A stretch of DNA of 64,000 bases from Escherichia phage EcoM2. This document shows positions 6,611 to 43,722 of this stretch, piece by piece. A program made the position numbers and the translations under genes. The DNA lies in sequence record PQ818761.1. One strand, given 5' to 3'. Below the pieces are notes generated by a model. It did not search any database and had not been told where the DNA came from. It saw only the letters and a list, made by a program, of their open reading frames with translations. Position 1 is the stretch's first letter; every line of letters begins with the position of its first letter.

Positions 6611-7354
6611 ATGAGTAATATTATCGCATTTACTGGAAAGGCACGTTCTGGAAAAGACACCTCATGTTCTATTGTGAAGAACATCTTAGAGGATGAGTAT
6701 GGCTACAATGTTGAAGTAATGGCCTTTGCAGACAACCTTAAACTATCTGCATCAAAGATATTTGACTTGACTTGGAATGACCTGTACGGTGAAACTAAAG
6801 AGACTCCACAGGTTTTTGACTTATCATATCCTGAACTGATGTTTAAAGTTACGGAAGCTATGGAGTTCACCTTCAGAGATGAACGTTACCATATGGACTT
6901 CAAGCTTATGTCAGAGTTAACCGGACGATTAATCATGGAGCTTAAGAAGGTTGCTAAACCTACCCTATTAACACGTCTGGGATTTAGTAAAAAGTATAAA
7001 TTCTCATCAAGACAAATTCAACAGATTTGGGGTACTGAAGTTGTCCGTAAAGTAATGGGCGACAAGTTCTGGTCTAAAGACCTTGAAAAAAGAATGGTTA
7101 GATTCCATGAAATGTGCTCACTTAGAAATCAATATGGTTTTGTCTTAATCAGTGATTTAAGATTTGACTCTGAAGCTGAATGGCTGAGTAGATTTGCACA
7201 CCAAACTATTGAAGTAAAAAGAGACAATGTGGACAAAGTTTCATCACATGTTTCAGAAAATGGGATTTCTACAAAATATGAGCGTGACATTATTCATAAT
7301 AATGGTACTCTTGCAGACCTTGAGAACAAGCTAAGAGCCATCATTAAAGTTTAA
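6611..7354 (+). CDS. deoxynucleoside monophosphate kinase
   Basis: N-terminus MSNIIAFTGKARSGKDTS is a P-loop closely resembling the T4 gp1 dNMP kinase N-terminus as I recall it; 247 aa. Confidence 0.75.
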   Translation: MSNIIAFTGKARSGKDTSCSIVKNILEDEYGYNVEVMAFADNLKLSASKIFDLTWNDLYGETKETPQVFDLSYPELMFKVTEAMEFTFRDERYHMDFKLMSELTGRLIMELKKVAKPTLLTRLGFSKKYKFSSRQIQQIWGTEVVRKVMGDKFWSKDLEKRMVRFHEMCSLRNQYGFVLISDLRFDSEAEWLSRFAHQTIEVKRDNVDKVSSHVSENGISTKYERDIIHNNGTLADLENKLRAIIKV

Positions 7355-7362
7355 AAGAGAGA

Positions 7363-7563
7363 ATGAAGATGAGAGTAAAAGACAATTTTAAAGTTATTGA
7401 CCACCGTTTAGTGGAACTCTCATCTCTTTCCAATGAGGTAATGATTGAACGTCTTAAGAGAGTTGAATCACGAAGGAAAGAGATTGCAGATGAAATTCAT
7501 GAACTGGACAAGATTGAAAATGGATTGAAGGCAGAACTACAACGAAGAGGTGCTAATGTCTAA
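7363..7563 (+). CDS. hypothetical coiled-coil protein
   Basis: 66 aa ORF. Confidence 0.4.
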   Translation: MKMRVKDNFKVIDHRLVELSSLSNEVMIERLKRVESRRKEIADEIHELDKIENGLKAELQRRGANV

Positions 7564-9541
7564 AGGTCGTAAATTGAAAGAGGCTGGTCAGTTTATTGGT
7601 CATTGTGCATGTCCACGTTGTGGTTCATCAGATGCTGGTTCAATCTATCATCATGACGATGATTCTTATTCGATGACTTGCTTTAGTTGTAACAAAGGTT
7701 TCCCAGAGTGGGATTTTGATAAAGGACAAATCGTGAGCACTTATTCTACTGGTTCAGACAATAAAAACCGTACTTTCCGTGGAATGGATTTAGACGATGT
7801 AAAAGAAAACCTTGAAGCAATGGACTTGAAAGACAGGAAGATTCCTGCAAAAGTTCTTGAGCGTTTGGGTATTAAGGTTGACATTGACAGTGATGGTGAA
7901 ATTGACGCGCATTTCTACCCAACTTACAAACGCAATGAAGATGGCAAGCTAGAGCATGTTGGCTACCGTGTTCGTCACCGTTACCCAGAAGACCATCCAA
8001 AAGAGCACCTACGAGGTAAGTTAAAAGACTTTTCTGGTGGTGTTGGAGACATTAAAGGTGAACTGGCAATGTTCGGTTCATGGATTGCTCCAGAAGGTGG
8101 TAACCGTCTATTCATCTGGGAAGGTGAGATGGAATGTGCGACAGCAATCTACATGACTTCTCTTGCGATTAAGGACAAATCTCGTCGTAAGAATTACTGT
8201 CACGTATCTGTTCCATCAGGTGCAAACATCAAGTCTATCAAAGATAACTATCAGTACATTACATCATTTGATGAGATTTACTTGTGCTTTGATAACGATG
8301 AAGCAGGTGCTAAAGCCACTAAAGAGGCTGCTGGTATCCTACCTATTGAGAAGGTTCGTTTATTCCAGTATCCAGAAGGCGTAAAAGACCTTAACGAGTG
8401 GTGGACAAAGTTCTATAAAGAGAAAGATACAGTTCTGGAAGGATTTAAGCAGCGTATCTACAATGCACCTCGTTACTGTCCTGCTGGTATCAAGAACTTT
8501 GCAGATGGTTTTGAGGCAATGAAGAATCGTGGTCAGATTCCATTGATTCCTTTCCCAGAATCTTTCGGAGATTTGAACAGGCTGACTTATGGTGGTTACG
8601 GTTTAGGTGAGATTACAACTATTGCAGCACCATCTTCAGTAGGTAAGTCAGCTTACACTCGTGAGATGATTTACTCAGCTTGGAAAGAAACTGATTATAA
8701 TATCGGTGTAATTCCTGTAGAAGATACCTATGAAGAGTTGATGGAGATGCTCTGTGCAATCCACCTGAGCAAGCAGATTTCTGAGATTCCTTATGATGAA
8801 CGGGATTGGGATGAATTAAAAGGAGCACACGCAGAACTATCTAAAGGCCGTCGTATCCATATCGTTGACCATCAAGGGGCAATTGACCAAGATAACCTGC
8901 TAGAGTTTGTTGACTATCTTGTTAACAGTTTAGACTGTAAGATTATCATTCTTGACCCTATCACGTTAGCCCTGTCACGTTCTGATACGGATGAAGAAGA
9001 AGTTTTGTCTGAGCTATTGCGTCGTTGCAAACGCTACCAGTATGCGCAGGTAAACGTATGTCACGTTCGTAAGAGTGCAGGTGGTCAGAAAGCTAACTCT
9101 GAAGGTGGAGATATCTCTGAAGAGGATATCAAAGGTTCTGGTGCGTATTTTCAGATTTCTATGAATAACATTCTGTTAATGCGTAACAAGGTTGACCCAG
9201 ACCCTGTTAAGAAAAACTTGACAAAAATTAAGTTAACTAAGTGTCGTCGTCATGGCAAGTCAACAGGTATTGCTGGTCATACTTGGTACAATCCAGACAC
9301 AGGACGTCTTATCAAAGCTTCTGGATGTGGTGTTGACATTGATGGTGCAGCAGAAAATATTCGTCAACAGTTTGGTATTGGTGAAGCCGAAGACCATTAT
9401 GACGACTCTTTGCCTCATTATGAGGATGAAGTGTTTGACCGTGAAACTGGTGAAGTCTATACTGAAGAACAGCGTCAAAGCTCAACGATTCCACCTGTAT
9501 TAAGTGAGGATGCAGATGACTGCCCGTTCGAAACTGAGTGA
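7556..9541 (+). CDS. DNA primase-helicase (T7 gp4-like)
   Basis: N-terminal zinc ribbon (CPRCGSSD...CFSCNKG), TOPRIM-like IWEGEMECATAIY, and DnaB-type Walker A APSSVGKSAYTREM. ORF track starts at GTG 7550; ATG at 7556 has a GAAGAGG RBS. Confidence 0.85.
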   Translation: MSKGRKLKEAGQFIGHCACPRCGSSDAGSIYHHDDDSYSMTCFSCNKGFPEWDFDKGQIVSTYSTGSDNKNRTFRGMDLDDVKENLEAMDLKDRKIPAKVLERLGIKVDIDSDGEIDAHFYPTYKRNEDGKLEHVGYRVRHRYPEDHPKEHLRGKLKDFSGGVGDIKGELAMFGSWIAPEGGNRLFIWEGEMECATAIYMTSLAIKDKSRRKNYCHVSVPSGANIKSIKDNYQYITSFDEIYLCFDNDEAGAKATKEAAGILPIEKVRLFQYPEGVKDLNEWWTKFYKEKDTVLEGFKQRIYNAPRYCPAGIKNFADGFEAMKNRGQIPLIPFPESFGDLNRLTYGGYGLGEITTIAAPSSVGKSAYTREMIYSAWKETDYNIGVIPVEDTYEELMEMLCAIHLSKQISEIPYDERDWDELKGAHAELSKGRRIHIVDHQGAIDQDNLLEFVDYLVNSLDCKIIILDPITLALSRSDTDEEEVLSELLRRCKRYQYAQVNVCHVRKSAGGQKANSEGGDISEEDIKGSGAYFQISMNNILLMRNKVDPDPVKKNLTKIKLTKCRRHGKSTGIAGHTWYNPDTGRLIKASGCGVDIDGAAENIRQQFGIGEAEDHYDDSLPHYEDEVFDRETGEVYTEEQRQSSTIPPVLSEDADDCPFETE

Positions 9542-33684: not shown

Positions 33685-34464
33685 ATGGGTATTGTAAAAG
33701 TTGTGAAAGGTAACTTACTGGCTGCCTTCAAAAACACAGATATCGAGTTAATTGCTCATGGTTGCAACTGTCGTAACCTCATGGGTGCTGGAATCGCTCA
33801 AAAAATTGCTAAGATTTTCCCAAAAGCTGAAGAAGCTGACAGGAAATTCCATAAGAAGTTTGGCTACAATGCTCACGATATAGGATACCAGATGATTGGT
33901 GAGGTGTCACATGCTCGAACAGAGTATGGTTACATTTTTAACCTATATACACAGTTGGATGTTGGAAAGTGTGCATCATACCGATACTTAGTGGAGTCAC
34001 TAGAAAAACTCCGTAAGTTTTGCTGGATGCACAACATTCGTAAGATTGGTTTACCCATGATTGGGGCAGGTATCGGTGGGTTAGACGCACAAGCCGTGAA
34101 AAGCCTCATTAATAGCATTATGTACAACGTTGATGTGTACCTATACGTCTATGATGAAGCAATGGCAACTGTAGTTACCCCTAAGTATGCCACCTCAGCA
34201 CCACAATTCTATGATGGTGTTGTTCTCAGTGACGGTAAGTCTAACCATGTTACCCTCTATCAACTTGTTGAAGGTAAGGTAGAGGTTAGTTACCCTCTGG
34301 TTAGTGAGATGGGTATGTGTAACAGTGAAATGTTCTCAGTTGACCCGTTTGGTAGATACGAAGGGGTATTCTTTGATAACTACCCAGCAGCATACATCTA
34401 CACAACAAATCAGGATGAAGTTCACTACTTGCTGTATTCTAAAAAGTTCAAATTCATAAGCTGA
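33685..34464 (+). CDS. macro-domain (ADP-ribose binding/processing) protein
   Basis: N-terminal region ELIAHGCNCRNLMGAGIAQKIAK fits the macro-domain N...G-x-G-(V/I)-A signature; about 100 aa C-terminal extension of unknown function. Confidence 0.6.
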   Translation: MGIVKVVKGNLLAAFKNTDIELIAHGCNCRNLMGAGIAQKIAKIFPKAEEADRKFHKKFGYNAHDIGYQMIGEVSHARTEYGYIFNLYTQLDVGKCASYRYLVESLEKLRKFCWMHNIRKIGLPMIGAGIGGLDAQAVKSLINSIMYNVDVYLYVYDEAMATVVTPKYATSAPQFYDGVVLSDGKSNHVTLYQLVEGKVEVSYPLVSEMGMCNSEMFSVDPFGRYEGVFFDNYPAAYIYTTNQDEVHYLLYSKKFKFIS

Positions 34465-34708
34465 TTAGCACTTCACATTATCTACAAATCATCCAAGAAG
34501 GCTGCCTAACCAATTGAAAAATTTAAGGTAAGGCGGCCTTTTTCATTTCCAATTTGTGCAGGTATCTGTAGAGGTCTGCACAAATACCTCAAAAAATCTC
34601 ACCTCCAGATAGAAAAATCATTTTCAAAACGTGCAGACCCCGCTCAGGTCGGGCAAGAAAAATCATTTTAGAATTGTGCAGGTAGGATTTTATAGAGAGC
34701 CAGACCAG

Positions 34709-34739
34709 CCCCTCTCCCCCTCTTACTCCCCCTCTCCCC
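34709..34739 (-). other. G-quadruplex-forming G-run tract (C-rich on + strand)
   Basis: + strand CCCC-TCT-CCCCC-TCTTACT-CCCCC-TCT-CCCC, i.e. four G-runs of at least 4 on the - strand. Confidence 0.5.
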
Positions 34740-34860
34740 AAAAGTCAAGAGAAAAATTTGTAGCGGATTGAAAAATAATTCTTGATTTGTGTTCTGTTTT
34801 GTGGTAGTCGTGTGCGCCCGTTTCATTACAGTTTTGCTAAAAATATTTTTAAAATTTTTC

Positions 34861-34889
34861 TTGACTCTTTGAACGTGGTTATCTAGTAT
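34861..34889 (+). promoter_or_regulatory. sigma70-like promoter
   Basis: TTGACT - 17 nt - TAGTAT upstream of the first small-gene cassette. Confidence 0.5.
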
Positions 34890-34895
34890 TTGCAT

Positions 34896-34952
34896 CAACA
34901 GGGAGGGAATGTCCTTCCCCACTAAATAAAGTCCTAAACTGGAGATTCAAAA
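34896..34952 (+). repeat. type A hairpin/leader cassette, copy 1
   Basis: caacaGGGAGGGaatgTCCTTCCCC hairpin then conserved leader ACTAAATAAAGTCCTAAACTGGAGATTCAAAA before ATG. Confidence 0.7.
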
Positions 34953-35336
34953 ATGAAATACCGTGCACCTAAATTCATCAACAAAGACAACTTTCGCAAC
35001 GCACTGGAGAAGTCACTTGATGAAAGTTTTAAAGGTAACATTATCGTTGTTCACGCATTCAATTTTAAGTATGATGTAAACGGGAATAGAATCAACCATT
35101 ACACGGCAACCATGTTAGATGGTACACTTTCAAGTGAAAAAGCCGTACTAAATGCACTGGCAGGACGTGGAAAGGTATTAGTAAGATGTGATAAGAGACG
35201 TTATCAGGGCGGCGCATATGGTTATGATGATGCTGTTTACCATCTTGAAAATATGGGCTATCAAGTAGAAAAAGCTGGAGCATCACAAATCATCGGCAGC
35301 GATGGTTATGTAACTATCTTCAAAATTAACAAATAA
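34953..35336 (+). CDS. hypothetical protein (small-gene array 1)
   Basis: 127 aa ORF preceded by type A cassette with GGAG RBS. Confidence 0.55.
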   Translation: MKYRAPKFINKDNFRNALEKSLDESFKGNIIVVHAFNFKYDVNGNRINHYTATMLDGTLSSEKAVLNALAGRGKVLVRCDKRRYQGGAYGYDDAVYHLENMGYQVEKAGASQIIGSDGYVTIFKINK

Positions 35337-35337
35337 A

Positions 35338-35422
35338 GTGCTTTACAGGGGGCTTATAGTTCGATAAAGTAAGCCCCAGATAAAGAGCTTTACCACTAAA
35401 TCCTAAATTGGAGAACTTAAAA
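35338..35422 (+). repeat. type B hairpin/leader cassette, copy 1
   Basis: GTgCTTTACAgGGGGCTTAtag...TAAGCCCC hairpin, AGATAAAGAGCTTTACCACTAAATCCTAAAtTGGAGA leader. Confidence 0.7.
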
Positions 35423-35716
35423 ATGGCTATTATCAAAAACGTTGTAATTGCTGCAAAAACTCGTGATGACGCTCGCGTTATGGCTAAAAAGTTATGCGGG
35501 AAAGTGGTTGACAACGGAAAACAATCTGCTGTAAGGTGGGGCGTGAAGGTTGATAAACAGTTGAAGTTAAAAAATTCACCGATAAACCTTTTTACATGTG
35601 TAAACACTATCGGTAAGACAAATGTATACACGAAAAAGGCATACATTAGACGCGTAGCATTAACATCCCCCATTCGTACAATGAGAAGTTATGCAAAGCT
35701 GAAAATTAACAAATAA
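35423..35716 (+). CDS. hypothetical protein (small-gene array 2)
   Basis: ORF-track ORF 35408..35716 trimmed to the ATG positioned by the conserved leader (MAIIKN...). Confidence 0.5.
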   Translation: MAIIKNVVIAAKTRDDARVMAKKLCGKVVDNGKQSAVRWGVKVDKQLKLKNSPINLFTCVNTIGKTNVYTKKAYIRRVALTSPIRTMRSYAKLKINK

Positions 35717-35717
35717 A

Positions 35718-35801
35718 GTACTTTACAAGGGGCTTAAAAGCTGATACCTTAAGCCCCAGATAAAGAGCTTTACCACTAAATCCTAAACTGGAGATTCTAA
35801 A
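35718..35801 (+). repeat. type B hairpin/leader cassette, copy 2
   Basis: GTACTTTACAAGGGGCTTAAAAG...CTTAAGCCCC then conserved leader. Confidence 0.7.
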
Positions 35802-36314
35802 ATGAAAACTGTAGACGCTACCTTTGAAGTTGTAAAAGAAAAATTTTCCATCATCTACGAAGCGGTAAATTGCTACGAAGCAAGCCATAATCTCGTTAAT
35901 TGGGAGTTTACAAACGACCATCAAGGCGGTGTGACTGTTAAAAATCCTAACTGTCAGCATAATGATTTTAAATATGCAAACCCTTTGCATTACAGCCTTA
36001 AACAGCTTTCAAGTGACTATGCAAAACAAGGCCGGGAAAATCCATCAAAAGAGGCTTACGCAAGCTTACAAAAAGAACTAGAAAGAGATTTAGAGGCTTC
36101 AGAGTACAACCTTGCCGCGAAAGTTGTGGATGCAAACGGTAACACGGTTTTAGAAAGTTTTTATCTTGGTTATGCTTTCGATTGGTGCTATCGTGACGGC
36201 GATGATTTAGAGGATAGACTAAAAGAAGAGGTGAACAATTCAGACGCAGAAACTGAAGTATTAGAACGTTTGGAATCGTTGAAAGATTCAGTGATGAATA
36301 TCTTTAAGAACTAA
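35802..36314 (+). CDS. hypothetical protein (small-gene array 3)
   Basis: 170 aa ORF after type B cassette. Confidence 0.55.
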   Translation: MKTVDATFEVVKEKFSIIYEAVNCYEASHNLVNWEFTNDHQGGVTVKNPNCQHNDFKYANPLHYSLKQLSSDYAKQGRENPSKEAYASLQKELERDLEASEYNLAAKVVDANGNTVLESFYLGYAFDWCYRDGDDLEDRLKEEVNNSDAETEVLERLESLKDSVMNIFKN

Positions 36315-36315
36315 A

Positions 36316-36406
36316 TAGACCTCTTTACACGGGGTTATCAAGTTGGTATGATAGCCCCAGATAAAGAGATTTATCAAATAAAGCCCTTAAACTAGGAGAT
36401 TCTAAA
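36316..36406 (+). repeat. type B-variant hairpin/leader cassette
   Basis: CTCTTTACACGGGGTTATCAAG...GATAGCCCC then AGATAAAGA...CTAGGAGATTCTAAA. Confidence 0.6.
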
Positions 36407-36703
36407 ATGAAATTATCAAATCAAGTGCGTGAAAATTTGAGCAAATTACTCAACAAAATTGATTTTATCGAGACATCAAGGAATAGGCATGATGTTATGG
36501 AATGGTTACACGGCAAAATAAAAGGTCGTCGTGTAGTGATTTGCTTATGGAACAGTTGCAGGGAGTATAAAAAACCTGTATTACAAGTTAATATATACGA
36601 TAATACTTTTAAAAGTCCTGTAAAGTCTAAAAGCGATTTATTAGAATCCTATGAGATAACTGTAAATGGCAAAGTATCACGTAAAGAGGAAACACCATGT
36701 TAA
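36407..36703 (+). CDS. hypothetical protein (small-gene array 4)
   Basis: 98 aa ORF. Confidence 0.5.
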   Translation: MKLSNQVRENLSKLLNKIDFIETSRNRHDVMEWLHGKIKGRRVVICLWNSCREYKKPVLQVNIYDNTFKSPVKSKSDLLESYEITVNGKVSRKEETPC

Positions 36704-37029
36704 TGACTGGTATCACTGCAATCATTGCCATTTTCGCGCTATATAAGGCATATAAAGCCTATAATCTAGCAAGTAAGGCAATTACGCAGCAGGTTAGCAA
36801 TAACCTTGTAGAAAGCTTTCTAGGGCGTCTCAGTGATGAGCAAATAAAGCGGCTAGAGATGAGCTTCAGATATAAAGCGAAAACCTATCAGATAAGTGAC
36901 ATCTTTAAAGATGATTTTCAGTTAGTTGATGATTATAATTCTCTGATAAATGCTTTAAACATCAATGACTTGAAAGAATATCACGCTGTAATTGTTCAAG
37001 AATTGAGCAAACGAAAACAAATCTGTTGA
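36697..37029 (+). CDS. hypothetical membrane protein (small-gene array 5)
   Basis: 110 aa with N-terminal hydrophobic helix; overlaps upstream gene by 7 nt. Confidence 0.45.
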   Translation: MLMTGITAIIAIFALYKAYKAYNLASKAITQQVSNNLVESFLGRLSDEQIKRLEMSFRYKAKTYQISDIFKDDFQLVDDYNSLINALNINDLKEYHAVIVQELSKRKQIC

Positions 37030-37054
37030 CACTGGTTTTTAGATAGATTAAATT
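37026..37054 (+). promoter_or_regulatory. sigma70-like promoter
   Basis: TTGACA - 17 nt - TAAATT; 29-mer identical to the copy at 38078. Confidence 0.55.
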
Positions 37055-37060
37055 ACACAT

Positions 37061-37121
37061 CAACGGGGAGGGAATGACCTCCCCCCCCACTAAATAAAGT
37101 CCTAAACTGGAGATTCAAAAA
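37061..37121 (+). repeat. type A hairpin/leader cassette, copy 2
   Basis: caacGGGGAGGGaatgaCCTCCCC hairpin plus conserved leader. Confidence 0.7.
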
Positions 37122-37280
37122 ATGTTTTGTGCAGGTGATAAAGTTGTCTGGAATGATATAGATGACGGTTTATGTACGAAAGTTGTTGTTATCTTAGAAA
37201 TTGATTATATCACTGGTGTTGCAACTGTAGCAGATAATGATATAATCTTTGATGTCTTAATTAGTGAACTGTCAAAATAA
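37122..37280 (+). CDS. hypothetical small protein (small-gene array 6)
   Basis: 52 aa ORF (below ORF-track cutoff) starting exactly at the ATG positioned by the cassette leader. Confidence 0.4.
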   Translation: MFCAGDKVVWNDIDDGLCTKVVVILEIDYITGVATVADNDIIFDVLISELSK

Positions 37281-37305
37281 AGTCCTTAAACTAGGAGATT
37301 CAAAA

Positions 37306-37578
37306 ATGTACACTACTAACAACGGTCGCACCTTAAACGTAACCCTACGCCACTATGTGAACGGTGTAATGCACTTCGAGGATTTACAAGCTGAACAGCA
37401 CATTTTGGATTGGCAACTTGCAGGATTCCAAAAAACTGCTACCGGATACGGGAAAAAGATTCCAACTAGCTGGAAAGTATACTACGAAGGCCGTTTGCGT
37501 AGAATTTATCAAGATGTATGCGGCAATAGCGCATCAAGTTACATCATAGTAAAAGGCAAAAAGCTGCATTTAGCATAA
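37306..37578 (+). CDS. hypothetical protein (small-gene array 7)
   Basis: ORF-track ORF 37264..37578 trimmed to ATG 37306, which follows a copy of the leader (AAGTCCTTAAACTAGGAGATTCAAAA) without hairpin. Confidence 0.5.
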   Translation: MYTTNNGRTLNVTLRHYVNGVMHFEDLQAEQHILDWQLAGFQKTATGYGKKIPTSWKVYYEGRLRRIYQDVCGNSASSYIIVKGKKLHLA

Positions 37579-37663
37579 AGTACTTTACAAGGGGCTTATA
37601 AGTCTGTACAGTAAGCCCCAGATAAAGAGCTTTACCACTAAATCCTAAATTGGAGATTCAAAA
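37579..37663 (+). repeat. type B hairpin/leader cassette, copy 3
   Basis: GTACTTTACAAGGGGCTTATAAG...GTAAGCCCC plus leader. Confidence 0.7.
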
Positions 37664-38068
37664 ATGGCTATTAATAATCGTGAGTTATCTATCTTAAAAG
37701 CACGTTTGACCGTTAACCGGATTAATGTTATCACATCAGCAGCACCGGATGAAACACTGCAAAACATTATTGGGAAGATTCAAAGTGTTATCTTAGACGT
37801 TGAAAGCGTAAAAAACTCATTGGCTGACGTTGCAGCCGGTATCACGCTAGACGGTGCACAACATGAGATGGCCGACATGTTAGGCAAATCAAAGGTAATG
37901 AATAAAGAATTAGACTTGAAAATGTTTCGATTTGCTGTTAAAGTGTGGCTATCCGTCGAGTATGACGCTAACTTTGCAATCGCTGACTTTTTCGCCACTT
38001 GGTTGCAGCGTAATTTGTCAAATCATGATTTTCGTAATATCTGTGATGCAATTTATGCAGAACTCTAA
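37664..38068 (+). CDS. hypothetical protein (small-gene array 8)
   Basis: 134 aa ORF. Confidence 0.55.
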   Translation: MAINNRELSILKARLTVNRINVITSAAPDETLQNIIGKIQSVILDVESVKNSLADVAAGITLDGAQHEMADMLGKSKVMNKELDLKMFRFAVKVWLSVEYDANFAIADFFATWLQRNLSNHDFRNICDAIYAEL

Positions 38069-38077
38069 AAAATTTTG

Positions 38078-38106
38078 TTGACACTGGTTTTTAGATAGAT
38101 TAAATT
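38078..38106 (+). promoter_or_regulatory. sigma70-like promoter
   Basis: TTGACA - 17 nt - TAAATT, identical to 37026 copy. Confidence 0.55.
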
Positions 38107-38112
38107 ACACAT

Positions 38113-38171
38113 CAACGGGGAGGGGATGACCTTCCCCACTAAATAAAGTCCTTAAACTAGGAGATTCTAAA
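38113..38171 (+). repeat. type A hairpin/leader cassette, copy 3
   Basis: caacGGGGAGGGgatgaCCTTCCCC plus leader. Confidence 0.7.
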
Positions 38172-38369
38172 ATGGCTATTATTAACGGCTTAACCATTGA
38201 AACAACACACATCAAAGATATCAAAGTTGGTGATGTAGTCCTTTCCCACGGCGTAGAAAAAACTGTCACTGTAAAGGATATCAAAGAGGATTCTTTCATG
38301 GGTAGAACTCTCTTCGGTGATTCTTATTGCTTAGGTTATCTTGCAGTTTTAAAAGTTGTCAAAAATTAA
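38172..38369 (+). CDS. hypothetical protein (small-gene array 9)
   Basis: 65 aa ORF. Confidence 0.45.
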   Translation: MAIINGLTIETTHIKDIKVGDVVLSHGVEKTVTVKDIKEDSFMGRTLFGDSYCLGYLAVLKVVKN

Positions 38370-38377
38370 GTAATAAA

Positions 38378-38461
38378 GTACTTTACAAGGGGCTTAAAAA
38401 GTTGGTATCTTAAGCCCCAGATAAAGAGCTTTACACAGTCCTTAAACTAGGAGATTAAAGA
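38378..38461 (+). repeat. type B hairpin/leader cassette, copy 4
   Basis: GTACTTTACAAGGGGCTTAAAAAG...CTTAAGCCCC plus leader. Confidence 0.7.
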
Positions 38462-38710
38462 ATGATGAATTATTTAAACATTCCCGACACTTGCAGACTG
38501 TTAACGCAACCAGAAAATTTAGGTAAGGCTTACCTATACCATATGCCAAATAATACGGCAAAAACTTATAGTTACACTGTTAACCGATTCACGGCATACG
38601 CTGCAAAAAACGGTTACAAGGTTGTTACTCAAAAAGTAACACTGTTTACAACTGTTGAGGAACTCCCCACGGTTGCAGTTAAACTGATTTTTTCAAAGAA
38701 AACTAAATAG
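38462..38710 (+). CDS. hypothetical protein (small-gene array 10)
   Basis: 82 aa ORF. Confidence 0.5.
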   Translation: MMNYLNIPDTCRLLTQPENLGKAYLYHMPNNTAKTYSYTVNRFTAYAAKNGYKVVTQKVTLFTTVEELPTVAVKLIFSKKTK

Positions 38711-38795
38711 ATTTCTTTACACGGGGTTATCAAGCTGATAAGATAGCCCCAGATAAAGAAATTTATCAAATAAATCCTAAACTGGAGATTCAAAA
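38711..38795 (+). repeat. type B-variant hairpin/leader cassette, copy 2
   Basis: TTTCTTTACACGGGGTTATCAAG...GATAGCCCC, near-identical to 36316 copy. Confidence 0.6.
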
Positions 38796-39338
38796 ATGAA
38801 ATGTTTTCACGGTACTACTCAAGAAAACTTTATCAACCTGATTAATAACGGTGATAAACCATCAGGCGCATGGAATTGTTCTGATATGGATGGGAATTTT
38901 TACGTTTACCCAGAGAATAAAATCTATGGCGACGATGAGGAAGAAATAATCTTTGAAGGTATCCAGCAAGCTCTGGGCAATGCCACTATCACCGCAGCTT
39001 TTCAGATGAAAACTCAAAACATTGTTATCTTGGAACTTGAGATTCCAGAAGATGAGCTAAACGATGATTATTCTTGTGATAATATGTCGAGCGTGGCAAG
39101 TTTTACAGAATATTTCGATTTAAATTGGATTAAAAAGGTTTACATCACTGAATTTAATGCTATGTATTCGCCTTTTTGTCTTCCTTCACTGGATAACCCA
39201 AATATGAATTATCTTGATGAGACATTAGAACTACTTGCTAAAAGTGTTCAACAATCGGACAGTATTCAGGTTTTTTGTGACATCATGGACACACTAACGG
39301 AAAACATCGCAGAAGAGGATTTAAAGAGCTTTTTCTAA
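38796..39338 (+). CDS. hypothetical acidic protein (small-gene array 11)
   Basis: 180 aa ORF. Confidence 0.55.
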   Translation: MKCFHGTTQENFINLINNGDKPSGAWNCSDMDGNFYVYPENKIYGDDEEEIIFEGIQQALGNATITAAFQMKTQNIVILELEIPEDELNDDYSCDNMSSVASFTEYFDLNWIKKVYITEFNAMYSPFCLPSLDNPNMNYLDETLELLAKSVQQSDSIQVFCDIMDTLTENIAEEDLKSFF

Positions 39339-39404
39339 AACCCTATGCAATCACATTATAAACACTATTCAGCCCCTTGTAGGGGCTTTTAAGAGGCTTA
39401 AATC

Positions 39405-39638
39405 ATGCTTACAACCGTTTATCTTATCCTTTCTATATGTAATGGTCATTCATGCGATTTTAAAGGGCTTGAAGAGTTTACAGGAAGTAAAGAAAATGCT
39501 ATTCAAGTTTGCCAGATAGCGAGACAAGACTATCCCGCAAGTGATGATATTCAGTGTTACTTTAAGACAGAAGATGAAGACGGTATCTATTTTGACAGTG
39601 TAGATGGTCAGTATGAAATTATCATTGAAAAAGACTAG
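39405..39638 (+). CDS. hypothetical protein (small-gene array 12)
   Basis: 77 aa ORF preceded by a CAGCCCCTTGTAGGGGCTTTT hairpin. Confidence 0.45.
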   Translation: MLTTVYLILSICNGHSCDFKGLEEFTGSKENAIQVCQIARQDYPASDDIQCYFKTEDEDGIYFDSVDGQYEIIIEKD

Positions 39639-39670
39639 ACAAGCCTGATAAAAATCTGTAAATTGTCAAT

Positions 39671-39729
39671 CAACGGGGAGGGAATGACCTTCCCCACTAA
39701 ATAAAGTCCTTAAACTAGGAGATTCAAAA
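39671..39729 (+). repeat. type A hairpin/leader cassette, copy 4
   Basis: caacGGGGAGGGaatgaCCTTCCCC plus leader. Confidence 0.7.
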
Positions 39730-40071
39730 ATGGCTTATGTAACCGTAATTACCGATAAAGCTGGCGCATCTTGGTCAACTCAAGTAAGCGATAAGATGTC
39801 ACCTATGCAGTGCCTAAAATACTTTGAACAGTGGAATAAAGGCGAGGACACAAGCCCCTTTCAAGTGATGCAGATTATCCATGTAGACAACGAAGGGAAT
39901 AAAACTGTTTTGAACAGTGAGTACTATGCAACCCGATTTGAAACGAGAAGTAAAACAATGAAACTTTTACGTGAATCCGGTTATTCCCATATCGCCGCGT
40001 TAATCTGGGATGACCTGCTAAAAAACCAACGTATCAGCTATGTAAAACCTGAAAAAATATTCATCAGTTAA
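39730..40071 (+). CDS. hypothetical protein (small-gene array 13)
   Basis: 113 aa ORF. Confidence 0.5.
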   Translation: MAYVTVITDKAGASWSTQVSDKMSPMQCLKYFEQWNKGEDTSPFQVMQIIHVDNEGNKTVLNSEYYATRFETRSKTMKLLRESGYSHIAALIWDDLLKNQRISYVKPEKIFIS

Positions 40072-40235
40072 TCAATAACTTACAAAAAACTTTCAAAAAA
40101 GTATTGACAAAGCCCCTTGACATTGGTAGATTTGTTCGAGGGGGTTTATCTAAAAGGGATTAACTTAAAAGATTCTTTATAGATAAGCTCAAAAAATTAC
40201 TTGCAATCAACTATCAAAACAAGTAAATTACTAAT

Positions 40236-40291
40236 CAACGGGAAGGCAATAACCTCCCCACTAAATAAAGTCCTAAACTGGAGATTCTAAA
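40236..40291 (+). repeat. type A hairpin/leader cassette, copy 5
   Basis: caacGGGAAGGcaataaCCTCCCC plus leader. Confidence 0.65.
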
Positions 40292-40822
40292 ATGAACAAA
40301 TTTCAAGCTATCAACTTCATTCGTTCAAATGCTGTAATGTCAAAGCCTGTTAAAGACACCTATGAATTTCGTTGTAATGGTGTACATTTTGCAACAATCA
40401 CCAAATCAGAAAACGGGGCTTATTACGTCCATCGTCGTAATGTTTCTACTGTTGTAGTTTCTCACTTTATGCAAGCTGTCGCGGAACTTCTCCCGATGTT
40501 TTTAGGTCTTTACTTAGATGAGTGTAAAAACGTTCACAATCACGTTAAAAACCTTTTAAACAGTTATAAAATGGCTTATGAACGTTCTATCAAGTCCTTA
40601 AACAAGTTTTACAACGCACCTGAAAATACTGTGTCAATGGCCTATGCTGTAAATGGTGATGCGGTGAGTCTCTTTGAAGTGGAAGAAATCAAGCTGCATG
40701 ATTTACGCACTAGCGGTTACTCTAAGACTCTCGGTGAAGGTTTAACGTTCAATATCAAGAACTTAGAAAAAACTTTAAAAGATATTGAAAAAGATATTGA
40801 CGAGACAATCAAAAGTCTGTAA
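40292..40822 (+). CDS. hypothetical protein (small-gene array 14)
   Basis: 176 aa ORF. Confidence 0.55.
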   Translation: MNKFQAINFIRSNAVMSKPVKDTYEFRCNGVHFATITKSENGAYYVHRRNVSTVVVSHFMQAVAELLPMFLGLYLDECKNVHNHVKNLLNSYKMAYERSIKSLNKFYNAPENTVSMAYAVNGDAVSLFEVEEIKLHDLRTSGYSKTLGEGLTFNIKNLEKTLKDIEKDIDETIKSL

Positions 40823-40831
40823 ATTGTCAAT

Positions 40832-40888
40832 CAACGGGGAGGGAATGACCTTCCCCACTAAGTAAAATCCTAAACTGGAGTTATCAAG
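40832..40888 (+). repeat. type A hairpin/leader cassette, copy 6
   Basis: caacGGGGAGGGaatgaCCTTCCCC plus divergent leader. Confidence 0.65.
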
Positions 40889-41152
40889 ATGGAAAACGTA
40901 GAATTAACCACACTTTTACAAATTGCAACCGACAAAGAAGACGTAGCATTATTTCACCGTATCGAAAGCGATTTATTCAATGGTGAAATCATCAAAGAAT
41001 CTTATGAAGTTGTCGGATTCAAAGATGGTAAAGCATTTGGCTTTTTTGACCTCGACAAAGGCAACGCGGTTACAAAATACGATGTTTTATCTTGTGAGAT
41101 TCTGACAAAATACAACGAAAAAAGGCTTGCAACATACGCCAACATGCAGTAA
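40889..41152 (+). CDS. hypothetical protein (small-gene array 15)
   Basis: 87 aa ORF. Confidence 0.5.
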   Translation: MENVELTTLLQIATDKEDVALFHRIESDLFNGEIIKESYEVVGFKDGKAFGFFDLDKGNAVTKYDVLSCEILTKYNEKRLATYANMQ

Positions 41153-41161
41153 ATTATCAAT

Positions 41162-41218
41162 CAACGGGAGGCGATAACCTCCCCACTAAATAAAACCCTT
41201 AAACTAGGAGATTCAAAA
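41162..41218 (+). repeat. type A hairpin/leader cassette, copy 7
   Basis: caacGGGAGGcgataaCCTCCCC plus leader. Confidence 0.65.
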
Positions 41219-41467
41219 ATGGCAACTATCCGCGCAACTGTCAATGCTTATGGCTGTTATACTCTGGACGTTAAATTTGATATTGGTGGAACTGATGAGT
41301 GTTTTTCATTAGTGAAGACAGTTATCAAGCAAGTTATCCCAGATTATAACCCTACTGATGACTTCTGGAAAGACGCTGTAAAAGAGGCATTAAACGACGA
41401 GCATCACTATCATTACTGGGGTGACTTGATTATCTCACTGTACTACAATAAACAAGGTTACAACTAA
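41219..41467 (+). CDS. hypothetical protein (small-gene array 16)
   Basis: 82 aa ORF. Confidence 0.5.
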   Translation: MATIRATVNAYGCYTLDVKFDIGGTDECFSLVKTVIKQVIPDYNPTDDFWKDAVKEALNDEHHYHYWGDLIISLYYNKQGYN

Positions 41468-41505
41468 TCGACGCAACGGGGCTAAATAGCCCCAGATACC
41501 TTCAC

Positions 41506-41528
41506 AGCCCCATTTAAGGGGCTTTTTT
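41506..41528 (+). terminator. rho-independent terminator
   Basis: AGCCCC-atttaa-GGGGCT hairpin followed by TTTTTT; ends the rightward small-gene array. Confidence 0.6.
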
Positions 41529-41529
41529 A

Positions 41530-43128
41530 CGTCTATGTAATAGCCCCTATACAATCCTTTCCCTTTCCTTTCCAGAATCTTACTAGACCTTAAAAGCAAT
41601 AACTCTATAGCTTACTCTATAACCCCTTATCAAATCAACTTAAATATAAGCCCATAACCCGAAAGGGAAGGGCAACCGTTTAAACGCTCTATAAAGCTCT
41701 ATAACAGCCTTATCAACCTAACTTAAGGGATTGCATTACCTCACCCTTAAAAGCCCTTTATAAAGCTTCTCAGAGCCTTAAAAGAATCTTATAAGGGTGT
41801 AAGCTTTATTATCTCGTTAGTTCCTTGTGAATATCTAGAAAGGGCTATGAGATAGGAATCTATCGAATCCTATTGTTAGTGTCTTAAAAGTGTGTTATAG
41901 GGGCTATGAAGTTACTTCAAAGTTGCTTAAAAGTTACGTAAATGCTAGCCCCCTTAACATTTTCTTAACAATTTCTTAACAAACCCTACATAGTTATGCT
42001 TTTAAGGCACTTGTTAGCAACTTGTTAGCCCCTTGTTAAATCTCTGTTAAAACCACGTAAAAGCCTTGTAAGAGTCTTTGACATAGCCTTAAAAGCTCCT
42101 GTAAAGCTCTATAAAAAGGTGTCTGTACAGTTGGGGTGTAATTACTAGGAAGAGACTTAAAAGAGCTTACAAAGAGCTATAGAGAGCTTTTAAGAGGTAT
42201 GTTTAAGGAATCACTAAGAAAGGAAAGGGAATGATAAGAAAAGGGATAGTGACCATGTTAATAGCTTGTTAAAAAGATTAGACACTTGTTAGGAACTTGT
42301 TAATTATCTTAACAAAATAACTCTTAAAAATTAACTTGTTAGCTCTTGTTAGTCACTGTTAAGACTCTGTAAAGACCATGTATCGACTGTTAAGAACTTG
42401 TTACAGCCTTGTTAGTTCTGTTAAGAGTCTGTTAAGACCTCTGAAGAGATGTTAAGAGCTTGAGAGAGTTGTTAAGAGATTGTTAAGGATATTTTAAAAT
42501 TCTGCAAAGGGGATGTTACAGGGATGTTAAGGGCTACCAAGCAGATATACATCCTAGACAGATATTTTTCAGTTCCTTCAAAAACCCTAAAAAATGACTT
42601 GATAGCCCTATTTTATAAAAATTTTAAAAATCTGAATAATTACCTAGACAGTCTTTCAAAAATACAGGTAGAAACAGGCTTATAAGATACCTTGTTAGTA
42701 CCGTGTTAGACCTTGTGAGATAAGGTCTGTAAAGATATTCCTGTTAAGTTTGTTAAAACAGTCTATATAGAGGCTTAGTAATACCTAGTGAACACCTATA
42801 GAGGGTCATCTATGTGACATAGAGATTAAGAGGTGTATAGGAGCTTCTAAGAATGTGTAGAGAGATGGTTAAGGTGATTGTATAGGTTGTTAAGAATGCT
42901 TGTTAGAAGAGTGTTTAGAAGGGCTATACAGATGGGCTATTAAGACCACTAGATAGATACTAAGATACTATATAGTACTATATAACTGTATATAGAGAGT
43001 AAGCTTAAGAAGGGTGTTAAGAAGGATAGATATTTTATTCACATATGATGGTGACCCAGAGGTTGGGACAACCGATAAAATTTTATAAAAATTAAAAAGC
43101 CCCCAATTAAGGAGGCTCTTAAGATATT
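41530..43128. repeat. ORF-free repeat-rich region with iteron-like short direct repeats
   Basis: About 1.6 kb with no ORF of 60 aa or more on either strand; more than 20 copies of TGTTAAG / CTTGTTAG, locally at about 11-bp spacing (42330-42540), plus CTTAAAAG and GCTCTATAA repeats. Confidence 0.6.
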
Positions 43129-43722
43129 TTAAATCAGTGTTTCCAGAACTGTCTTCAGTGATGACTTGGTTGTCTGATAAAAATGAGTAAATCCATTGTT
43201 GTTATCGAATACCTGCATCATGATATCATCTCCCTTGATTGGGTACACTCGAATATCATAGTGAAACCCATTAAAGACAGCAGAACCATTACAGAATGAA
43301 CTGAAATCATCCACTGAGATATACTCTTCATGACCTGTGATTTTTATACAAACACCTTTACTCGGTCTCTTAGGGTTGATATCTTCCATCACAGACATAC
43401 TCTGTCCACCAAGAGATACCATAGTGACCACTTTACGGTTCTTCTGTCTAAAGTACATCTTAACTTTCTGCAAAGTGTCTTCATAGAACGGATAAGACTT
43501 CTCTACAAAGATTCCTTCTAACGGCTCTTTACCATTTTCAACTTCTCTGTTATGCCGTACTGCAAAGATAATTTGTTGGAACCAGTCAAAATTTTCTTCG
43601 GAGAGTCCTTCCCGAATATCATTCCAGTCAAGGACTAGGTAGTTACCTTCAACTTCTTTTAAGTTATCTTTTTCCATATCTATCACACCATTATCGTAAA
43701 ACTTGGTACTCTGGAACTGCAA
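43129..43722 (-). CDS. hypothetical protein
   Basis: 197 aa ORF; first of the leftward block converging on the repeat region. Confidence 0.5.
   Translation of the reverse strand: MQFQSTKFYDNGVIDMEKDNLKEVEGNYLVLDWNDIREGLSEENFDWFQQIIFAVRHNREVENGKEPLEGIFVEKSYPFYEDTLQKVKMYFRQKNRKVVTMVSLGGQSMSVMEDINPKRPSKGVCIKITGHEEYISVDDFSSFCNGSAVFNGFHYDIRVYPIKGDDIMMQVFDNNNGFTHFYQTTKSSLKTVLETLI

Follow-up and report, generated by a model that had tools for sequence, protein, structure and literature searches.

A putative cassette-built early region of 16 small genes in Escherichia phage EcoM2

Features of the locus

The window analyzed is a 64,000-nt stretch of the genome of Escherichia phage EcoM2 (PQ818761.1), to which all positions refer. 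It carries an array of 16 small open reading frames (ORFs), g1 to g16, placed head-to-tail on the + strand (34953-41467) between a macro-domain gene on the left and a canonical terminator on the right (Table 1). One of two repeated composite cassettes, type A or type B, precedes 13 of the 16 genes. Three genes have neither: the ATG of g5 overlaps the stop of g4, g7 has a leader only, and g12 follows an internal terminator and has its own Shine-Dalgarno (SD) sequence. All cassette elements (A, B and the leader) are on the + strand within 34861-41218, and no further copies of the A hairpins, B cores or leader were found elsewhere in the window. The array is probably a hyperplastic early region of the Felix O1 type, composed of self-contained expression modules that would be joined by two composite cassettes similar to the promoter-early-stem-loop (PeSL) elements of T4-type phages (Arbiol, Comeau & Krisch 2010, PMC2839356; Comeau et al. 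2014, PMC4122927).

The segment 34500-42000 matches 261 phage records, the best being Escherichia phage vB_EcoM_ASO1A (ASO1A) with 92% identity over 93% of the query; all of the matches listed are Felix O1-type myoviruses of about 85-90 kb. By its sequence the source phage is a Felixounavirus. The protein on the left flank of the array contains the Pfam domain Macro (E 5.6e-7) and is annotated in phage Mordin as a phosphatase containing a macro domain. A Pfam search with the 16 array proteins gave no domain in any of them; 15 belong to PHROG families of unknown function and g6 is without a PHROG. An initial annotation, made from the letters and ORFs of the window, had reported 16 small + strand ORFs (52-180 amino acids) between the macro-domain gene and a repeat region, nearly every one behind a cassette, with seven type A and six type B copies and no recognizable domains. 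The same genes, the macro-domain label and the same cassette counts were recovered here, together with 14 leader copies.

Type A cassette

The seven type A hairpins were counted at 34893, 37058, 38110, 39668, 40232, 40829 and 41157. In each cassette a -35 element is followed, after exactly 17 bp, by a -10 element, 10 nt ending in ATCAAC, a G/C hairpin of 6-8 bp (GGGGAGGG...CCTTCCCC) and the leader. The -35 forms in the window are TTGACA, TTGACT, TAGACA, TTGCAA and TTGACG, and the -10 element is TAAATT except in copy 1 (TAGTAT). Unique cassette copies were gathered from the window, 10 GenBank relatives and IMG/VR contigs; lone 15-mer matches in IMG/VR were due to chance and were ignored. In this set 118 of 119 type A copies keep the geometry (-35, 17 bp, TAAATT, TAGTAT or TAAAGT), the single exception being a visibly truncated "empty" cassette. 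The folding energy of the type A hairpin ranges from -11 to -20 kcal/mol, and 50 unique hairpin segments gave a mean of -13.1 kcal/mol, compared with -3.7 kcal/mol for shuffled sequences. From the usual distance of 7-9 nt to the -10 element, the type A transcript is predicted to begin 1-3 nt before the stem, which would place the hairpin at the extreme 5' end of the mRNA. Messages in Escherichia coli are subject to 5'-end-dependent decay, and a structured 5' end stabilizes them. The type A hairpin may thus be a 5'-terminal message stabilizer.

Type B cassette

The type B core, AGCCCCAGATAAAGA, is found six times (35372, 35752, 36353, 37614, 38413 and 38745). An invariant TTTACA is followed by 17 bp (138 copies) or 18 bp (6 copies) and then TAnnnT in 144 of 146 unique copies, which come from three genera. 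In the commonest length class the loop positions T24 and A25 are each kept in 113 of 114 copies, T29 in 112 and the G at -14 in 99, whereas the other positions are highly variable. The near-invariant positions are those that would define a -10 and an extended -10 element. The A+T content of the 12-20 nt upstream of the -35 element is 78-80% (78% over 20 nt for type B), compared with 61-63% in the background. The initial annotation had seen an identical 29-bp TTGACA-17-TAAATT promoter in some copies; it is present twice (at 37026 and 38078), but this count was too low for promoter-like elements, as all seven A and all six B cassettes hold a -35 element, a 17- or 18-bp spacer and a -10 element.

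As RNA or single-stranded DNA, the type B segment is predicted to fold into a 59-nt hairpin whose three segments (6+5+9 = 20 bp) are separated by a 1x1 mismatch and a 3x3 internal loop (-24 to -27 kcal/mol, z-score -3 to -5). The hairpin opens at the stop codon of the upstream gene, and the -10 element lies in its loop. Among 125 unique hairpins, taken with exact anchors from loci with at least two copies, 98.0% of the pair positions can pair, compared with 41-56% after a 1-2-nt shift of the 3' arm. A relaxed regular expression had added about 55 chance matches from unrelated IMG/VR loci, which were discarded. Compensatory double changes are found in 6 of the 20 stem pairs. In the Erwinia phages (Kolesnikvirus) TTTACA-17/18-TAnnnT is kept and the stem GGGG/CCCC is changed to GGTG/CACC. 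This covariation goes beyond the needs of a promoter, so the hairpin appears to be selected in its own right. An Rfam search of 34400-43200 (E ≤ 1) gave nothing relevant. The start of the type B transcript is predicted near the A of CCCCAGATAAAG (the CCCC-AGATAAAG position), in the 3' arm, so that the full hairpin would form only in RNA reading through from upstream. In such RNA it would insulate, process or protect the 3' end.

An explanation by RNA structure only would make the array a polycistronic early transcript from a few A promoters, with B as an RNase III site or 3' stabilizer and its TTTACA...TAnnnT a coincidence. It accounts for the position of the B hairpin exactly between cistrons, upstream stop codon included, for the two conserved loops, for the covariation of both outer and inner stems, which a promoter does not require, and for the absence of a U-tract behind the hairpin. 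It is nevertheless unlikely, because the loop positions that do not vary (-14 G, -12 T, -11 A, -7 T) are just those that determine a promoter, their distance from TTTACA is fixed, and an AT-rich tract precedes the -35 element. Moreover, roles in RNA and as a promoter are compatible, and an added function is more likely than a replacement.

The unrelated genes upstream of B cassettes have similar C-terminal codons (35322-35336, 35702-35716 and 38362-38369, encoding ...KINK*, ...KINK* and ...VKN*; AAAATTAACAAATAA). The cassette homology thus reaches into coding 3' ends, by which protein C-termini would be remodeled.

Leader

The leader, CCT(T)AAACT(A)GGAG, is present in 14 copies in the window; its two patterns gave 6 and 7 matches, compared with 0.14 and 0.05 expected from dinucleotide shuffles. 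The full form, (CCACTAAAT...)CCT(T)AAACT(A)GGAGATTC(A/T)AAA-ATG, follows both cassette types. Conservation extends over 35-45 nt, well past the SD sequence; the consensus CCT(T)AAACT(A)GGAGATTC ends about 4 nt before the ATG, and the copies end in GGAG-N8-ATG. Two alleles, CCT-AAACT-GGAG and CCTT-AAACT-AGGAG, make up 165 and 93 of 259 unique copies, with one mixed form, and both occur within the window (e.g., 37284-37297 and 37100-37112). Leader variants are lineage-specific across positions: one lineage has GGAGATTC in 127 of its 164 copies, the other has GGAGAATC in 28 of 41. This pattern, judged by counts of diagnostic motifs because whole-leader identity is confounded by the mixture of A and B sequence upstream, indicates concerted evolution or a reader that co-evolves with the leader.

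In a second explanation, the leader is a common translational operator similar to the start-associated sequences (SASs) of mycobacteriophages. As a target of an RNA-binding repressor or a nuclease of the phage (RegA- or RegB-like), or as a weak mini-hairpin sequestering the SD sequence, it would co-regulate the array after transcription. The conservation of 14 copies far beyond the SD sequence points in this direction, and the authors of the Mordin announcement likened its 26-bp leader repeat to SASs (PMC4611695). The coupled T...A insertion that distinguishes the alleles would lengthen a UCC(U)/(A)GGA pairing over the SD sequence, and the Erwinia phages have CCUU-AUA-AAGG at the same place. 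The coupling was given little weight, since the two sites are 6 nt apart and simple linkage explains it equally well. The predicted mini-hairpin has only 3-4 bp, no candidate regulator was identified, and an operator in the leader would leave the promoters, the large hairpins and the indel pattern unexplained. This explanation is rather unlikely.

Variation among related phages

Cassettes and gene families were mapped in about 28 related arrays from Felixounavirus, Mooglevirus and Kolesnikvirus. The number of genes is 9 in Felix O1, 16 in the window and about 19 in one Mooglevirus-like contig. Only g5, g7 and g8 are present in every readable array. Felixounavirus and Mooglevirus arrays keep the order of the backbone. 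Family x13 is found at the array start in some Felixounaviruses and after g12 in Mooglevirus. In the Erwinia phage the homologues, with 30-51% amino-acid identity, are in a different order: g3, g7, g11, g4, g12, g14, g10. Cassettes are better conserved than the genes beside them: 80-84% identity compared with 71-72% for the adjacent coding sequences between Felixounavirus and Mooglevirus, and 71% compared with 62% for the genes in comparison with Kolesnikvirus. The variation of gene content between conserved cassettes, which the initial annotation had proposed as a check, was thus found (9 to about 19 genes). Instead of an invariant syntenic array, or relatives lacking the cassettes, the relatives have the cassettes and differ in content, in an order that is mostly collinear within Felixounavirus and Mooglevirus.

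When the window was aligned with 20 relatives, 111 of 126 internal alignment ends fell in cassette DNA, which makes up 23% of the array; most of the other 15 lie 8-14 nt upstream, in conserved gene ends. The 126 ends are not independent events and represent about 14 distinct indel types. The indels are gene-plus-cassette units flanked by cassette repeats, and the shorter genome keeps exactly one repeat copy. Where cassettes of different type recombined in the leader that they share, the repeat overlap is 21-35 nt; for A x A or B x B it is 59-111 nt. Which type of cassette precedes a gene depends on the gene upstream, so a gene such as g1, g11 or g13 stands behind A or B depending on the genome. 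A 430-bp perfect tandem duplication of the B-leader-g2 unit with the junction AAAATG|CTTTACA is found in one contig (L013, IMGVR_UViG_2974556886_000001, ~7000-7900), and in Mordin (L129, ~3660-3790) a truncated B is joined to the next B at CTTTAC. Judged by sequence, both are recent traces that unequal or microhomology recombination has left at cassettes. "Empty" cassettes are found in one IMG/VR contig, in Mordin and in L053.

The array of VpaE1_ev78 (LR597663, L133) differs from that of VpaE1 (L007): it has g3, g6, g10 and g15 and is without g14. A literature search for the origin of VpaE1_ev78 and ev035 as laboratory-evolved recombinants found no paper. If the "ev" phages are laboratory-evolved, array exchange would be documented in real time.

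Table 1. Features of the array and its boundaries in the window
Feature	Coordinates	Strand	Remarks
Macro-domain gene	33685..34464	+	Left array boundary in all relatives
Type A cassette 1	34861..34952	+	-35 TTGACT, 17 bp, -10 TAGTAT; hairpin 34901-34919; leader
g1, 127 aa, phrog_4495	34953..35336	+	Presence/absence varies among relatives
Type B cassette 1	35334..35422	+	Three-segment hairpin 35334-35392, including g1 stop; TTTACA-17-TAAAGT 35342-35370; leader
g2, 97 aa, phrog_5089	35423..35716	+	
Type B cassette 2	35714..35801	+	Hairpin 35714-35772; TTTACA-17-TACCTT; leader
g3, 170 aa, phrog_4190	35802..36314	+	Felix O1 homologue is ORF16, maximal at 5 min
Type B cassette 3, B2 subtype GGGGTTATC/GATAGCCCC	36312..36406	+	Hairpin 36315-36374; TTTACA-17-TATGAT with TGn; leader
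g4 (98 aa) and g5 (110 aa)	36407..37029	+	Stop/start overlap, no cassette between
Type A cassette 2	37026..37121	+	TTGACA-17-TAAATT; hairpin 37065-37084; leader
g6, 52 aa	37122..37280	+	153-bp indel unit between two leader copies; relatives keep 26-34-nt overlap (one leader copy)
Stand-alone leader before g7	37275..37305	+	
g7, 90 aa, phrog_3436	37306..37578	+	In every array read
Type B cassette 4	37576..37663	+	Hairpin 37576-37634; TTTACA-17-TACAGT; leader
g8, 134 aa, phrog_4327	37664..38068	+	In every array read
Type A cassette 3	38078..38171	+	TTGACA-17-TAAATT; hairpin 38117-38137; leader
g9, 65 aa, phrog_3623	38172..38369	+	
Type B cassette 5	38370..38461	+	Hairpin 38374-38433; TTTACA-18-TATCTT; leader
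g10, 82 aa, phrog_9030	38462..38710	+	
Type B cassette 6, B2 subtype	38708..38795	+	Hairpin 38708-38765; TTTACA-17-TAAGAT; leader
g11, 180 aa, phrog_3303	38796..39338	+	Bas63 gp107 homologue
Intrinsic terminator within array, GCCCCT-TGT-AGGGGC-TTTT	39372..39390	+	Read from sequence
g12, 77 aa, phrog_4640	39405..39638	+	Own SD, no cassette
Type A cassette 4	39636..39729	+	TAGACA-17-TAAATT; hairpin 39675-39695; leader
g13, 113 aa, phrog_4318	39730..40071	+	
Third promoter/stem-loop form	40104..40150	+	TTGACA-17-TAGATT with TGn; -10 in loop of CCCCTTGA/TCGAGGGG stem
Type A cassette 5	40201..40291	+	TTGCAA-17-TAAATT; hairpin 40240-40259; leader
g14, 176 aa, phrog_4725	40292..40822	+	
Type A cassette 6	40797..40888	+	TTGACG-17-TAAATT, -35 inside g14 3' end; hairpin 40836-40856; leader
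g15, 87 aa, phrog_7022	40889..41152	+	
Type A cassette 7	41127..41218	+	TTGCAA-17-TAAATT, -35 inside g15 3' end; hairpin 41166-41183; leader
g16, 82 aa, phrog_4559	41219..41467	+	
Intrinsic terminator closing array (t23 of Felix O1)	41506..41529	+	

Expression and recombination in relatives

In Felix O1, reverse transcription PCR showed maximal expression of ORFs 13, 16, 20, 21 and 22 at 5 min after infection and of ORFs 17, 19 and 23 at 25 min; almost no promoters were found in that phage, and its early transcription was left unexplained (PMC3185647). Four of the seven array genes tested (ORF16, 20, 21 and 22) are among those that peak at 5 min. The Felixounavirus Bas63 was reported to yield about 30% recombinants in PhageMaP, compared with about 2% for T7 (PMC11482910), which fits efficient homologous recombination on short homologies.

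Interpretation

On the evidence of sequence architecture and comparative genomics, the PeSL-like interpretation of the cassettes is supported. The comparison of arrays shows that the cassettes serve as recombination substrates, and, from their sequence, host-polymerase early promoters are strongly suggested at every cassette. Repeated 13-14 times in direct orientation, the cassettes provide portable homology. Host RNA polymerase would fire at each of them immediately after infection, and each small gene would be expressed autonomously. Shuffling would proceed by the efficient homologous recombination of the phage, without the need for a dedicated recombinase.

Several observations weigh against this interpretation. 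The covariation of the outer B stem is left unexplained by promoter function, and the -10 hexamers of type B are weak (TAAAGT, TATCTT, TACCTT) and lie within a stable hairpin. A generic sigma-70 scan of this AT-rich region was not enriched (31 sites compared with 22 ± 5 in shuffles); the scan is uninformative in DNA this rich in A+T, and positional conservation across unique copies was used instead. Three of the seven tested array genes of Felix O1 peak at 25 min, and the searchable literature holds no data on transcription start, termination or processing for Felix O1-type phages. The mostly collinear order in Felixounavirus and Mooglevirus means that variation is chiefly presence or absence, with little free shuffling, and most of it could thus stem from differential loss among descendants of a large ancestral array. 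Finally, no U-tract follows the A or B hairpins on the + strand. Canonical terminators (G/C hairpin and U-tract) are found only at 39372-39390 and 41506-41529, and a + strand terminator scan of the array region scored only the one at 41506, passing over the A and B hairpins. The terminator activity of PeSLs can therefore not be assumed for these hairpins, and a terminator function appears doubtful.

The same observations bear on a further explanation, that the hairpins are terminators or insulators only and that the genes vary by an unrelated differential decay of a dispensable region. The A hairpins are called terminators in the records of ASO1A (based on WebGeSTer), KhF and XTG1, and the stem-loops of PeSLs terminated transcription in a reporter assay (PMC2839356). 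However, besides the missing U-tracts, the A hairpin comes after the promoter of its own cassette and would hence terminate the transcript made from it, and the breakpoints are concentrated in cassettes, with repeat copies retained. The terminator-only explanation is quite improbable and was rejected. It is likewise improbable that the B hairpin, which is found from Felixounavirus to Erwinia Kolesnikvirus, is a structure-specific site for a phage factor that either mobilizes gene-plus-cassette units, by mini-circles or integron-like capture in co-infected cells, or switches each module from promoter use to RNA processing and back. If this were true, the Ounavirinae would carry a dedicated exchange system for host-takeover and anti-defence genes.

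Felix O1-type phages, with more than 250 public genomes, find wide use in the typing of Salmonella, in biocontrol and in therapy. An early region built from PeSL-like cassettes would explain the source of most gene-content differences between isolates, and the model predicts at least 13 unannotated early promoters per genome. The cassettes would also be natural insulated sites for insertion and deletion in phage engineering. The PeSL idea would be extended beyond T4-type phages, in support of the view that large lytic phages generally exchange gene modules by way of regulatory cassettes. The ORFans flanked by cassettes, among them the putatively ADP-ribosyltransferase-like g11 in an array that adjoins a macro-domain gene, form a shortlist for host-takeover and anti-defence screens.

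Comparison with known systems

A PeSL combines a strong, sigma-70-like promoter preceded by AT-rich DNA with a GGGG...CCCC stem-loop, for which there are five possible positions relative to the promoter, and with an SD sequence and ATG; PeSLs cluster in hyperplastic regions, where indels are bounded by the motifs (PMC2839356). Promoter activity, terminator activity and mini-circles, which form by recombination of adjacent cassettes, also belong to the PeSL type. The resemblance to PeSLs proposed in the initial annotation extends to every feature that can be tested on sequence: composite early promoter, AT-rich tract, stem-loop of a G-run and a C-run, SD sequence and ATG, clustering in a hyperplastic region of small ORFans, and motif-bounded indels between relatives. 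The commonest PeSL class, in which the stem-loop lies between the boxes or over the -10 element, has its counterpart in type B, and the class with a stem-loop behind the -10 element has its counterpart in type A. However, there is no sequence similarity, the cassettes matching only records of Ounavirinae size by BLAST, and the phage is a Felixounavirus rather than a T4-type myovirus. Two or three sharply conserved forms are found here instead of five loose subclasses, and the long, covarying three-segment B hairpin that includes the upstream stop codon, the conserved 35-45-nt leader and the missing U-tract also set the array apart. In the absence of homology, the cassettes would be the same kind of device in another phage lineage, that is, an analogy. 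A literature search for mentions of PeSLs in Felix O1-type phages found none.

The individual parts of the cassettes have been noted before. The Felix O1 paper lists direct repeats of 57 bp (type B) and 39 bp (type A promoter) (PMC3185647), and the GenBank record of ASO1A annotates A promoters along with its "terminators". Neither these two sources nor the Mordin announcement, with its leader repeat, join promoter, hairpin and leader, recognize the B promoter, or tie the cassettes to gene gain and loss.

The SASs and extended SASs (ESASs) of cluster K mycobacteriophages have a 13-bp consensus, GGGATAGGAGCCC, located 3-7 bp upstream of the start codon (Pope et al. 2011, PMC3203893). Like the leader, they are asymmetric SD-containing repeats near the ATG, in one orientation, and precede non-structural genes of many families; about half of the copies are extended by an upstream inverted repeat. 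The sequences are unrelated (GGGATAGGAGCCC compared with CCTAAACTGGAGATTC in the leader), and only the principle is shared. In addition, little support was seen for an RNA hairpin in the ESAS arms (PMC3203893), whereas the hairpins described here covary. SASs are not described as linked to promoters or as indel boundaries.

The early genes of T7 are transcribed by host RNA polymerase and are separated by RNase III sites, which are imperfect hairpins with internal loops and a length of about two helical turns. These sites are not promoters, and the early genes share three upstream promoters. The B hairpin is likewise an imperfect intercistronic duplex of about 20 bp with internal loops. It differs in carrying promoter-like sequence, and is a candidate for cleavage.

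Integrons consist of small, promoterless cassettes in head-to-tail order, each with an imperfect 3' attC hairpin, next to the gene for a tyrosine-recombinase integrase. A dedicated integron- or transposon-like mobilization system, with the B hairpin as a structure-specific recombination site for a phage enzyme, would suit small ORFs of the same orientation, each with an imperfect hairpin of about 60 nt behind it, gene-plus-hairpin units that come and go as a whole, and the existing empty sites, but it was rejected as extremely unlikely: there is no fixed crossover point (the zones of 21-111 nt lie in the leader or span whole cassettes, as for homologous recombination), duplication and deletion junctions use microhomology, the cassettes have promoters of their own, the hairpin is strongly conserved in sequence as well as in structure, unlike attC sites, and no integrase-like domain was found in the 16 array proteins and the macro-domain protein, which were the proteins scanned.

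Other features of the region

The third promoter/stem-loop form, at 40104, is followed by about 140 nt without an ATG before the next A cassette, and no ORF lies directly behind it in this genome. The ASO1A record annotates it as a promoter plus a terminator, and in the Mooglevirus Sf17 its slot holds a gene for a 43-amino-acid membrane protein. The slot is either an emptied one or that of a small non-coding RNA.

Protein g11 has the invariant residues FHGT, FYVYP and E80, which could form an H-Y-E triad; this is a lead rather than a finding. Its homologue in Bas63, gp107, was reported to be more important on strain S17-1 and to be weakly Tpt1-like. A weak ADP-ribosyltransferase-like fold is suggested for g11. 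A Foldseek search with its AlphaFold model (predicted local distance difference test, pLDDT, 70.5) gave no significant match.

In the 400-nt non-coding stretch from the terminator of the macro-domain gene to the first cassette, three copies of TCATTT(N4-5)TTGTGCAGG are found at 34540-34685. Four copies are present at the same place in Erwinia Kolesnikvirus (L130, 1100-1300). The motif is conserved and is possibly a site for a regulator or a phage-specific promoter.

To the right of the array, a 1.5-kb non-coding region (41530-43000) contains periodic repeats of 10-11 nt (CTTGTTA, CTGTTAAGA), for which Tandem Repeats Finder reported periods of 10, 11, 20, 31 and 62. It may be an origin, or a region for bending or packaging. 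It divides the rightward array from leftward genes and is also free of genes in ASO1A, Felix O1, VpaE1 and Bas63.

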